From: a virus
Taxonomy: Duplodnaviria; Heunggongvirae; Uroviricota; Caudoviricetes
Reading direction: 5' to 3' (one strand)
IMG/VR virus record: IMGVR_UViG_2698536549_000010
Location: 1-16,935 of that record
DNA length: 16,935 nt
The translations under genes and the position numbers were made by a program. The notes under the pieces were generated by a model. The model did not search any database, was not told the DNA's origin, and saw only the letters and a program-made list of their open reading frames with translations. Each line of letters starts with the position of its first letter. The stretch's first letter is position 1. Positions 8,400-10,480 of the stretch are shown here, piece after piece.

Positions 8400-8594
8400 A
8401 TGCCAGAGAACAACACCAGAAAGCCGGATAAAAGTGCCACGGTACACATAGACGCCGGAACTATGGAGAAGATCGAACGCTATCAGCAGTTCATCAAAGA
8501 TAATCACCCGGGTATGCCAGTACCCACGAAAGGACAAATCACACGCAGCGCGGTTGAATACTGGTACAGGGCAACGTTAGGGGTCTGGCTATGA
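8400..8594 (+). CDS. hypothetical small protein, translationally coupled to the island protease/capsid gene
   Basis: 64 aa from the ATG at 8400, with GGAGG 7 nt upstream. Stop TGA 8592..8594 overlaps the capsid-gene ATG at 8591 (ATGA). Confidence 0.4.
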   Translation: MPENNTRKPDKSATVHIDAGTMEKIERYQQFIKDNHPGMPVPTKGQITRSAVEYWYRATLGVWL

Positions 8595-10480
8595 AAACAT
8601 GGTTTTCCATTAAGGCTATGGCAGATGTTGTCTATGTGCGCATTTATGACGAGATCGGCGGGTACGGTGTAAAAGCATCGGCACTTACTGACGAGATCAA
8701 CGCGTGTGGTAATGCGTCTGAAATCCATCTTCGCATCCATTCACCTGGTGGCGACATCTTTGAAGGGCTGGCTATCTATAACGCCCTGAAAAATCATCCG
8801 GCAAAGAAAATTGTACACATTGAAGGCATGGCGGCTTCTATGGCCTCGTTTATTGCCATGTGTGGCGATCACATCGTTATGCCTGAAAACGCGATGATGA
8901 TGATACATGCCCCCCGTGGTGTTACTGCCGGAGTGTCGGGCGACGTTCGCCGCTTTGCTGACCTGATGGACAAGCTGGGCGACACGATGGCGGAAACCTA
9001 CGCCGGAAGAACGGGCAGGAGCAAACAGGAAATCACCGCCATGATGGAGGCGGAAACCTGGATGGATGGCAATGAGTGTAAGGCTAACGGCTTCGCAGAT
9101 GAGGTTATACCCGCGATTACAGCAATGGCCCGAATTGAATCAAAACGAATCGGAGATTTTTCAAATATGCCGGAAAAAATTAAAAGCATGATCAGCCAGA
9201 AAACTACCAGTGGCGAACAGGAACGACTTAACGGCATCCGTGAATTGTTTGGCACGTTCAACGGAAGATATAACGACCTGGCTATAAGTTGTCTTGCTGA
9301 TTCAGAATGTAGCGTTGAGAATGCACGCGAACGCCTTTTACTCGCTATGGGTAAAGAATCAACGCCAACAAACAAAACCACCCCCGCAAATCTTTACTAC
9401 GCGTACACGGATAACGGCAACATAACCGGCGATGCAATGCGCCAGGGGCTTAATGCGCGTCTTGGTCACGAACGGGCCGAACGCGGTAATCCTTACGCCA
9501 TGATGAGCCTTTTCGATATGGCACAGGCATCATTAACCCATCGTGGTATAAGCACGGGCAGCTACGGCACACGCTCGCAGATAGTAAACGCGGCATTCAC
9601 CCACAGCAGCAGCGATTTTACCGATATTCTTGCTGGTGGCGCTGAAAAATCAGTGCTTGCAGGCTGGGAGCACAGCGGCGAAACATTCCGCCAGTGGACG
9701 AAAAAAGGTTCCCTTTCAAACTTCCGGGAAGCCCGCCGCGTTGGTATGAATGGCTTCTCAACGTTAAACAAAGTGCCGGAAGGGGCAGAATATAAATACA
9801 TCACCACCAGCGATCGCGGTGAACCCATCGCGCTGGCTACTTACGGGAATATTTTCAGCATTACCCGCCAGGCGATAATCAATGATGACCTTGATCAGTT
9901 ATCAACGGTGCCAATGGCTATGGGCCGTGCAGCATCAAGAACGGTGGGAAATCTGGTTAATCTGGTGCTTACAGGCAACGTAAAACTTTCTGACGGAATA
10001 GCGCTGTTTGACAAAAAACACAGCAACCTGATTGAAGCAGGACTGACAACACCGGGACTTAGTGCAGCACGTCACCTGATGCGCACACAGAAGGACAAAA
10101 ATGGCGAAGTGCTGAATATTGCGCCTAAATTCCTTTTAGTTCCGGCAGCACTGGAAGATCGCGCGTTGCAGATGATTAACTCAACCGCACCTTTCGGGGC
10201 TGATAAAAACAGCGGGATCTTTAACCCGTATCACAAGCTACTTGATATCATCGTCGATCCCCGCCTTGATGATATCAGCGAAAAACAATGGTACATGCTT
10301 TCCGCACAGGGAACGGACACAATCGAGGTGGCTTATCTTGATGGCAATGACGAGCCTTACCTTGAACAGCAGGAAGGTTTTATCGTTGACGGCGTGGCCT
10401 GGAAAGTCCGTATTGATGCAGGTGTGGCAGCTCTGGATTATCGCGGTATGGTCAAATCAGGCGGGACAGATTCACTATGA
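8591..10480 (+). CDS. ClpP-like prohead protease fused to a major capsid protein, island-encoded paralog
   Basis: 629 aa. The N-terminal domain has the ClpP-type GMAASMAS (Ser) and MMIHAP (His) motifs. The C-terminal ~330 aa align along their length with the prophage capsid protein at 14171..16195 (shared blocks EGAEYKYITTSDR, FSITRQAIINDD, TDTIEVA.LDG). The linker between the domains is about 30 aa shorter than in the prophage copy. Confidence 0.8.
   Translation: MKTWFSIKAMADVVYVRIYDEIGGYGVKASALTDEINACGNASEIHLRIHSPGGDIFEGLAIYNALKNHPAKKIVHIEGMAASMASFIAMCGDHIVMPENAMMMIHAPRGVTAGVSGDVRRFADLMDKLGDTMAETYAGRTGRSKQEITAMMEAETWMDGNECKANGFADEVIPAITAMARIESKRIGDFSNMPEKIKSMISQKTTSGEQERLNGIRELFGTFNGRYNDLAISCLADSECSVENARERLLLAMGKESTPTNKTTPANLYYAYTDNGNITGDAMRQGLNARLGHERAERGNPYAMMSLFDMAQASLTHRGISTGSYGTRSQIVNAAFTHSSSDFTDILAGGAEKSVLAGWEHSGETFRQWTKKGSLSNFREARRVGMNGFSTLNKVPEGAEYKYITTSDRGEPIALATYGNIFSITRQAIINDDLDQLSTVPMAMGRAASRTVGNLVNLVLTGNVKLSDGIALFDKKHSNLIEAGLTTPGLSAARHLMRTQKDKNGEVLNIAPKFLLVPAALEDRALQMINSTAPFGADKNSGIFNPYHKLLDIIVDPRLDDISEKQWYMLSAQGTDTIEVAYLDGNDEPYLEQQEGFIVDGVAWKVRIDAGVAALDYRGMVKSGGTDSL

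Follow-up and report, generated by a model that had tools for sequence, protein, structure and literature searches.

A protease–capsid fusion gene of a satellite-borne lineage in a PICI-type island within the large terminase gene of an Escherichia coli prophage

We analyzed the first 16,935 nucleotides of the IMG/VR virus record IMGVR_UViG_2698536549_000010 (hereafter the window), in which an island of ~10.0 kb (~1366..11396) lies among the head genes of a prophage. Judged from its sequence, the island is a Gram-negative phage-inducible chromosomal island (PICI)-type satellite residing in a lambdoid helper prophage of Escherichia coli, that is, a PICI of the helper-embedded kind (HE-PICI). The analysis centred on its capsid gene. 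The encoded 629-aa protein is a member of an old, satellite-only lineage of protease/scaffold/capsid fusions under purifying selection, and the gene does not derive from the corresponding gene of this prophage. The two fusion genes of the window are:

8591..10480, plus strand: island fusion of a ClpP protease, scaffold-like helices and an HK97-type major capsid domain, 629 aa in a continuous reading frame
14171..16195, plus strand: helper fusion of a ClpP protease and a major capsid protein, 674 aa from 14171 or 659 aa from 14216

Both proteins contain the Pfam domain CLP_protease (E 4e-33 in the island copy, 3e-36 in the helper copy) followed, towards the C-terminus, by Phage_capsid_4 (E 8e-55 and 8e-56, respectively). 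The island fusion matches the NCBIfam model NF045540 (‘ClpP-like prohead protease/major capsid protein fusion protein’) with 892 bits at a curated cut-off of 475, the match being split into two stretches at the tether. In a BLASTP comparison the two proteins align from end to end with 341/661 identical residues (52%) and 47 gap positions. These results bear out a first-pass annotation of the window, made from the letters and predicted open reading frames (ORFs) without database searches, which had described two ORFs that each combine a ClpP-type protease with a capsid domain and align along their length; the PGAP annotation already names the same protein correctly. The continuous frame given there for the helper gene also held up, but its start is uncertain: the longest ORF opens at a GTG at 14024, ATG codons follow at 14171 and 14216, and near-identical prophages are annotated from a start equivalent to ATG 14216. 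The catalytic residues Ser83 and His106 are kept in every full-length copy of our survey alignment (see below), 194 positions are conserved in both the satellite and the phage clade of the fusion, and residues 391–450 of the island protein share 77% identity with the helper copy. The island thus encodes a protease–capsid fusion homologous to that of the helper, with an intact ORF and a conserved active site.

Database homologues of the island fusion form a group of 90–100% identity (628/629 aa), carried by islands within terL, after which identity falls to 62–63% (637/638 aa). The latter group belongs to chromosomal PICIs, which show int, AlpA, DUF4222, primase and single-stranded DNA-binding protein genes upstream and a Nu1-like gene plus a 93-aa ORF downstream. 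No phage copy more than 52% identical to the island fusion was found in a collection of 50,697 phage records. For a broader survey, one genome per species was scanned, yielding 80 loci that were sorted by their neighbouring genes; copies adjoining a small ORF without a portal gene were defined as satellite-borne, and portal-adjacent copies as phage copies. The resulting alignment comprised nine satellite-borne copies (the window and loci fetched earlier counted in) and 66 portal-adjacent phage copies. The satellite copies stem from Escherichia, Trabulsiella, Yersinia, Kluyvera and Moellerella, and in a neighbour-joining tree they are separated by one split with a bootstrap value of 100/100. 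The first-pass annotation had regarded the island gene as a diverged paralog of the host prophage capsid gene. This view had to be given up in light of the satellite-only clade, the 52% identity and the lack of a closer phage copy in that collection; a recent duplication of the helper gene is ruled out by the phylogeny and an identity of only 52%.

The ratio of nonsynonymous to synonymous substitutions (dN/dS) was 0.094 at a dS of 0.54 between two island variants, the best-resolved pair, and 0.06–0.18 across the satellite clade wherever dS was estimable. By region, the values for the island variants were 0.13 for the protease, 0.13 for the tether with the scaffold-like part, 0.035 for the N-arm region and 0.074 for the capsid core. 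This range resembles that of the phage copies, and every domain is constrained, including the protease. A recent duplicate with an inactivating lesion, which had been considered as a possible outcome, is therefore not what we found, given the intact ORF, the conserved active site, the low dN/dS and the separate phylogeny.

A discrete difference between the two clades lies in the tether, whose length we defined as the number of residues between the invariant anchors I201 and R212 (island numbering). It spans 10–16 residues in all nine satellite copies and 27–79 residues, mostly ~43, in 66/66 portal-adjacent phage copies, without overlap. In the pair of the window, the MAFFT alignment shows a single gap of 35 residues in the island fusion, opposite the Pro-rich helper residues TPPRNSAPRDTTVTIPAPAVTEPSPVPAVSDEATIRA, which agrees with the missing Pro-rich linker of ~30 aa that had been described at first. 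In an AlphaFold2 model based on a 12-sequence alignment, the gap falls between a short helix (195–202) and the first scaffold-like helix (208–221). The scaffold-like helices span residues 208–252, the loop before them is of low confidence, and the protease domain is modelled confidently; this domain and the scaffold-like helices are the usable parts of the model. Beyond the tether, nine substitutions discriminate the clades, every one of them in the N-arm region or the capsid core. All satellite-borne copies sampled have the short tether, which is thus fixed and marks the lineage but does not prove that selection acted repeatedly.

The surroundings of the island fusion include a small ORF and two copies of a cos-like region:

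7967..8134, plus strand: cos copy 1, 94% identical over 168 nt to the helper-type cos region, with a cosN-like core and the cosB side
8400..8594, plus strand: small conserved ORF of 64 aa, with its ATG behind GGAGG (phrog_4934, E 9e-51); the longest ORF runs from 8367 (75 aa)
10504..10605, plus strand: cos copy 2, partial, with a helper-type cosN-like core and without the cosB side

The stop codon of the small ORF overlaps the start codon of the fusion (ATGA), suggesting translational coupling. The small ORF precedes every satellite-borne fusion copy, and a tblastn search of the 66 phage-copy loci gave no hit for it. Searches of Pfam, NCBIfam and PDB, including one with a seven-sequence profile, returned no match, and the PHROG hit is to a family of unknown function. 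The idea of a ribbon-helix-helix protein was a guess from the sequence and found no support. Based on its linkage, we consider the small ORF a candidate partner in the role of the satellite capsid protein.

As a reference for cos we used the region just upstream of terS in two closely related helpers (L001 and L011 of our comparison loci, numbered L), employing blastn and alignment. Since this helper region matches at 7967..8134 and 10504..10605, the island carries the packaging signal of the helper. The lambda-like cosN-like core of copy 1 has a 1-nt insertion (GGGCGGGAGGGCG vs GGGCGGGCGGCG in the helper). Two cos-like repeats bracket the small ORF and the fusion in the window and in L001, L002, L007, L008, L003 and L005; the bracket was found in other embedded islands and in chromosomal PICIs, and the module was bracketed wherever examined. 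In L005 the downstream copy is longer and stands directly before the Nu1-like gene. These repeats might serve cassette exchange by recombination, or they might provide an extra packaging-termination site.

A comparison of two chromosomal PICIs at cspD-clpS is instructive in this respect. E. coli AR24.2b (L092) harbours a non-embedded PICI with a different integrase that carries the small ORF, fusion and 93-aa module at 98.7% nucleotide identity, whereas the corresponding slot of EcCIIHE3034 in E. coli IHE3034 (L093) is filled by a lambda E-type capsid gene, a decoration gene and terS. Because the two elements differ there, the late zone of PICIs behaves like an exchangeable cassette. This cassette is probably matched to the head type of the helper, and the capsid type of satellite and helper coincides in the island described here, in an HE-PICI of Kluyvera genomosp. 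1 (L062) and in the published 11capE. Among 5426 complete E. coli genomes, 143 hold the module with a coverage of at least 80% of the query; carrier strains include E. coli RM10410, whose module is 100% identical, and O157:H7 146N4.

The position of the island was deduced from the helper genes on both sides and from the attachment sites:

60..371, plus strand: helper small terminase, C-terminal part (Nu1-like, DUF1441 type; phrog_141, E 1e-43; tblastn match to a DUF1441 terS); the gene begins before the window
368..1375, plus strand: helper large terminase, N-terminal ATPase fragment of 335 aa (Pfam GpA_ATPase, E 2e-82), a ‘missing C-terminus’ pseudogene in L001
1366..1372, plus strand: attL overlap CTGGATG, from comparison of attL and attR with the empty site in phage 1720a-02
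11390..11396, plus strand: attR overlap CTGGATG, from the same att-site comparison
11394..12515, plus strand: helper large terminase, C-terminal nuclease fragment (Pfam GpA_nuclease, E 2e-81; reconstruction of the intact gene)
12488..12724, plus strand: helper head-tail adaptor, gpW-like (phrog_118, E 5e-33)
12724..14226, plus strand: helper portal of the lambda family (Pfam Phage_portal_2, E 3e-80)
16283..16609, plus strand: helper head decoration protein (phrog_122, E 4e-39; Phage_cement_2 in L007), with no island counterpart

The ATPase and nuclease domains of the terminase lie ~10 kb apart, separated by the island. Rejoining the flanks at CTGGATG yields a protein of 707 aa, which aligns without gaps to the intact terminase of Escherichia phage 1720a-02 at 99.7% identity. 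The division of the window into an island and a surrounding prophage, as first proposed, is thereby confirmed, and the island sits precisely inside the helper large terminase gene, co-oriented with the late genes. The 7-bp overlap coincides with the boundary of the ATPase and nuclease domains (1366–1378 and 11390–11402). An island-derived base after the attL overlap creates the TAG that ends the ATPase fragment and an ATG within the overlap opens the ORF of the nuclease fragment, so that the interrupted gene is left as two clean ORFs of domain size. The nuclease-fragment ORF has no evident Shine-Dalgarno sequence ahead of it, and PGAP annotates the two halves of terL in L001 and L002 as incomplete.

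The flanks are 97–98.6% identical to the head modules of 1720a-02, CP-1639, VT1-Sakai and several Stx2 phages, i.e. of Stx-type and related E. coli phages, and the GC content is 0.38–0.50 in the island compared to 0.54–0.58 in the flanks. At least 80% of the window is present in nine complete E. coli genomes. Many more genomes, mostly of Shiga-toxin-producing E. coli (STEC), hold ~76–79% of it, the two terL halves and the two fusion genes all being annotated, and the terL junction is present in 57 genomes. In the Sakai prophage literature no prophage with a terminase interrupted in this manner is described, and ‘SpLE2’ as a name for the island gave no relevant literature match. A tRNA scan of the window was negative; the island is therefore not of the tRNA-site type. 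An Rfam scan of the whole window returned no match.

The remaining features of the island are:

1537..2775, plus strand: tyrosine integrase with a P4-type arm-binding domain (Pfam Arm-DNA-bind_3, Phage_int_M, Phage_integrase)
2768..2992, plus strand: small helix-turn-helix (HTH) protein at the AlpA/excisionase position (phrog_66 ‘excisionase and transcriptional regulator’, E 2e-7; weak HTH_17, E 0.005, below the cut-off; HTH regulator in L001)
3052..3630, plus strand: Bro-N domain protein of the Bro zone (Pfam Bro-N, E 5e-20)
5866..7620, plus strand: D5/P4-family primase-helicase of the replication zone (Pfam D5_N, DUF5906, Pox_D5; TIGR01613)
7625..7865, no strand assigned: iteron field of about ten GGTAGA/TCTACC copies in both orientations (repeat scan and sequence)
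10738..11019, plus strand: 93-aa ORF at the island 3' end, conserved across PICI types (phrog_1561, E 3e-55)

The island thus runs in the order integrase, HTH protein, Bro-N protein, D5 primase with iterons, cos, capsid module and 93-aa ORF, with all core genes on the strand of the helper late genes. The iteron field right after the primase is probably the replication origin of the island, and published PICI origins lie in the same position, downstream of pri (PMC10111431). A run of 50 N at 5726–5775 masks part of a small ORF upstream of the primase, where related islands annotate DUF4222. Scanning of the island ORFs against Pfam and PHROGs revealed no portal, terminase, head-tail connector, decoration, tail or HNH gene, and the only portal gene in the window is that of the helper. 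The initial statement that the element has no portal or terminase of its own is thus upheld; however, it does possess a copy of the helper cos. Neither terS nor a gene of Rpp size is present in the island. Homologues of the 93-aa ORF are 81–82% identical in chromosomal PICIs with another capsid-module lineage, and EcCIIHE3034 has an ORF of equal length at the matching position. The ORF itself has no PDB, Pfam or NCBIfam match; an assignment as Rpp homologue was rejected on account of the missing PDB match and its shortness compared to published Rpps (144–153 aa). Integrase, primase-replicase with adjacent origin, capsid gene, cos, a size of ~10.0 kb (10–20 kb in the group) and the absence of tail and lysis genes are all features of Gram-negative PICIs, the regulator being represented by a weak HTH_17/excisionase match only.

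For HE-PICIs, with 11capE in prophage 50icd as prototype, 491 elements have been mapped (Tommasini, Mageeney & Williams 2023, PMC10111431), which occupy 14 sites within cognates of lambda late genes; the same study noted that capsid genes are the commonest late genes of Gram-negative PICIs. The island resembles these elements in disrupting its target gene without a replacement sequence in attP (the TAG follows the 7-bp overlap at attL), in the order of its Integration, Bro, Replication and Late zones, in being embedded and co-oriented, and in having a helper-like cos together with a capsid gene of the helper's family. It differs in its site, which lies where the ATPase and nuclease parts of a gpA-family terminase meet: in the material consulted, names for the published A-gene sites refer to the Terminase_1 profile, and both ‘GpA’ and the att sequence of the island are absent from the portion of the PMC10111431 supplement text that was searched. 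Furthermore, its capsid protein is a protease–capsid fusion, whereas that of 11capE is of the lambda E-type. The doubled TGTATTGC motif of HE-PICI attP sites was absent from the window at up to three mismatches, the single hit being at chance level, while it was recovered near both island ends in the control locus L062, whose integrase matches the island integrase in domain architecture but is only 28% identical to it. As the motif is absent, the site unmatched and the integrase distant, we filed the island as an HE-PICI by configuration, whose site is unlisted and whose att group differs. Between attL and the integrase gene (1427–1474), AATGAGTT occurs twice together with one TATGAGTT, and the reverse complement of AATGAGTT lies near attR (11340–11350). 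The AATGAGTT repeats are candidate arm-type integrase sites in place of the published TGTATTGC motif. The element of L062 (~900–12200) has a satellite-type fusion of its own and is inserted in the Clp domain of the helper fusion gene; its fusion could replace the interrupted helper gene.

Classical Gram-negative PICIs such as EcCICFT073 and EcCIIHE3034 (Fillol-Salom 2018/2019) share the backbone and the late-zone slot with the island. In that slot they carry a lambda E-type capsid gene, a decoration gene and a terS-like or Rpp gene, whereas the island has the fusion only, and in contrast to them its cos copy 1 keeps the cosB side of the helper. The capsid-forming PICIs (cf-PICIs; EcCIEDL933, Alqurainy 2023) are similar in that their capsid proteins form clades apart from phage homologues, but they encode capsid, protease, portal, head-tail connectors, HNH, TerS and TerL, compared to a single fused protease–capsid gene here. 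The closest functional parallel is Ccm of SaPIbov5 (Carpena 2016; Hawkins 2021), a capsid homologue of a cos-type satellite that redirects head size by taking up the pentamer positions and makes T=4 heads (PMC8569155). Like SaPIbov5, the island is a cos-packaged satellite that encodes a homologue of the helper HK97-fold capsid protein and neither portal nor terminase. Ccm, however, is of Gram-positive origin and has no detected sequence relationship to the island protein, which adds a protease and a scaffold-like region; moreover, redirection of head size is demonstrated for Ccm, while for the island it would be a prediction. PmCI172 of Pasteurella multocida is a Gram-negative PICI with a capsid homologue, small heads in electron microscopy and packaged DNA of PICI-monomer size (PMC6092414). 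Its helper is Mu-like and its small-head gene has not been identified. HE-PICIs, capsid genes of Gram-negative PICIs and the redirection of head size by a capsid homologue from a satellite are hence already published, and the ‘minimal capsid-hijacking strategy’ that the first-pass annotation saw in this element has a worked example in SaPIbov5 Ccm (PMC8569155). The island is a new member of a known group and offers a testable lead; it represents no new strategy. As far as checked, the gpA-type terL site with its different att motif, the monophyletic satellite fusion lineage, the short tether, the coupled small ORF and the pair of cos-like repeats are apparently undescribed.

How might the island use this gene? 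We propose that, upon helper induction, transcription of the late operon would read into the island, as the HE-PICI authors proposed for 11capE (PMC10111431), and the island would excise, which would restore the terminase gene. The satellite capsid subunit, processed by its own ClpP domain, would assemble on the portal of the helper, either by itself or together with helper subunits; the helper terminase would fill the heads from the island cos site, and decoration, adaptor and tail proteins of the helper would complete the particles. Compatibility with the helper parts is suggested by the identity of residues 391–450, the 194 conserved positions and the matching capsid types. In the most speculative step, the short tether, possibly together with the coupled small ORF, may bias assembly towards heads suited to the satellite, most likely smaller ones. 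With helper genomes of 44–47 kb and capacity scaled with T^1.5, a T=4 head would hold roughly two island genomes and a T=3 head roughly one, whereas four copies would fit a normal head; these are rough estimates.

Smaller heads are favoured by the precedents of SaPIbov5 Ccm and PmCI172, by the stated expectation of the field for PICI capsid genes, by the fixed short tether and by the dedicated small ORF. That the island fusion gives altered, probably smaller, heads is accordingly a tentative proposal, to which we assign slightly less than an even chance. Its far-reaching version seems more doubtful to us: the satellite fusion lineage would be a single-gene head-size switch for Gram-negative PICIs, dependent on the truncated tether, possibly with the 64-aa protein; the satellite subunit would nucleate on the helper portal to form smaller heads with one or two 10-kb genomes, and residence in terL would bar packaging before excision. 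Several observations weigh against a change of head size. EcCICFT073, which has a lambda E-type capsid homologue, packaged exclusively phage-sized DNA, and phage plaquing did not return to normal when its capsid or decoration gene was deleted (PMC6092414); the HE-PICI paper (PMC10111431) refers to this study for the tolerance of a capsid knockout in a PICI. In E. coli JNEC-KY179 (L002, 15577–16583), the same island occupies the same site in terL, but its fusion carries an internal deletion that leaves a short Clp fragment and a capsid C-terminal pseudogene, so the gene can be lost. The satellite copies form a single clade, and one or two early deletions may therefore account for their short tether. 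The pairwise alignment and structure prediction suggested at the outset located the tether gap, but the capsid domain was modelled poorly (predicted local distance difference test, pLDDT, ~25–30 beyond residue 447) because the alignment was shallow, and therefore no geometric argument can be made from the structure. A promoter scan showed no sigma-70-type promoter above chance directly upstream of the module.

An alternative in which the satellite subunit is functional at unchanged head size, as an extra or backup capsid protein with the island packaged as multi-copy concatemers in helper-sized heads, strikes us as possible, if rather doubtful. EcCICFT073 was packaged in phage-sized capsids, with the terminase skipping cos sites (PMC6092414), the HE-PICI authors proposed that captured late genes serve as backup copies (PMC10111431), the satellite of L062 interrupts the helper fusion gene while having its own, and four island copies (40 kb) would by our estimate fit a 44–47-kb helper head. 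In the window, however, the helper capsid gene is intact and needs no backup, and a plain backup leaves the satellite-only lineage, the fixed short tether and the dedicated coupled small ORF unexplained. The same protein could instead mainly interfere, co-assembling with the helper subunit and spoiling or diverting helper heads, so that phage yield is lowered and no dedicated satellite heads are formed. Helper interference is a general PICI trait (PMC6092414), the shell-forming segments are highly conserved with the helper copy, and all nine substitutions that set the clades apart fall within the N-arm region and capsid core. Nevertheless, transfer of the island depends on working heads, for which it has no further genes, the active site of the protease is conserved, which points to productive maturation instead of poisoning, and deletion of the EcCICFT073 capsid gene left interference unrelieved (PMC6092414), all of which makes a mainly interfering role improbable.

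We consider it highly improbable that the fusion is a functionless relic of late-gene capture or a decaying recent duplicate of the helper gene. The deleted copy in L002 and the tolerated capsid knockout in another PICI would fit such a relic. The dN/dS across the satellite clade, the intact ORF with its conserved active site, the monophyly of copies from five genera and the 52% identity to the helper copy with no closer phage copy all speak against it; dN/dS and phylogeny, as estimated from these sequences, already contradict this explanation.

Most Gram-negative PICIs carry a capsid gene, and the one tested, that of EcCICFT073, had no phenotype. The island offers a cleaner test case, with a single fused gene and a discrete, lineage-wide tether difference (10–16 vs 27–79 aa) that is experimentally swappable; its helper is known because it is physically linked to the island. 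With this element, helper-embedded satellites gain a terminase-gene integration site with a different att motif. Islands of this kind are common in STEC, and they may affect the yield of Stx-type prophages that have the same head module.

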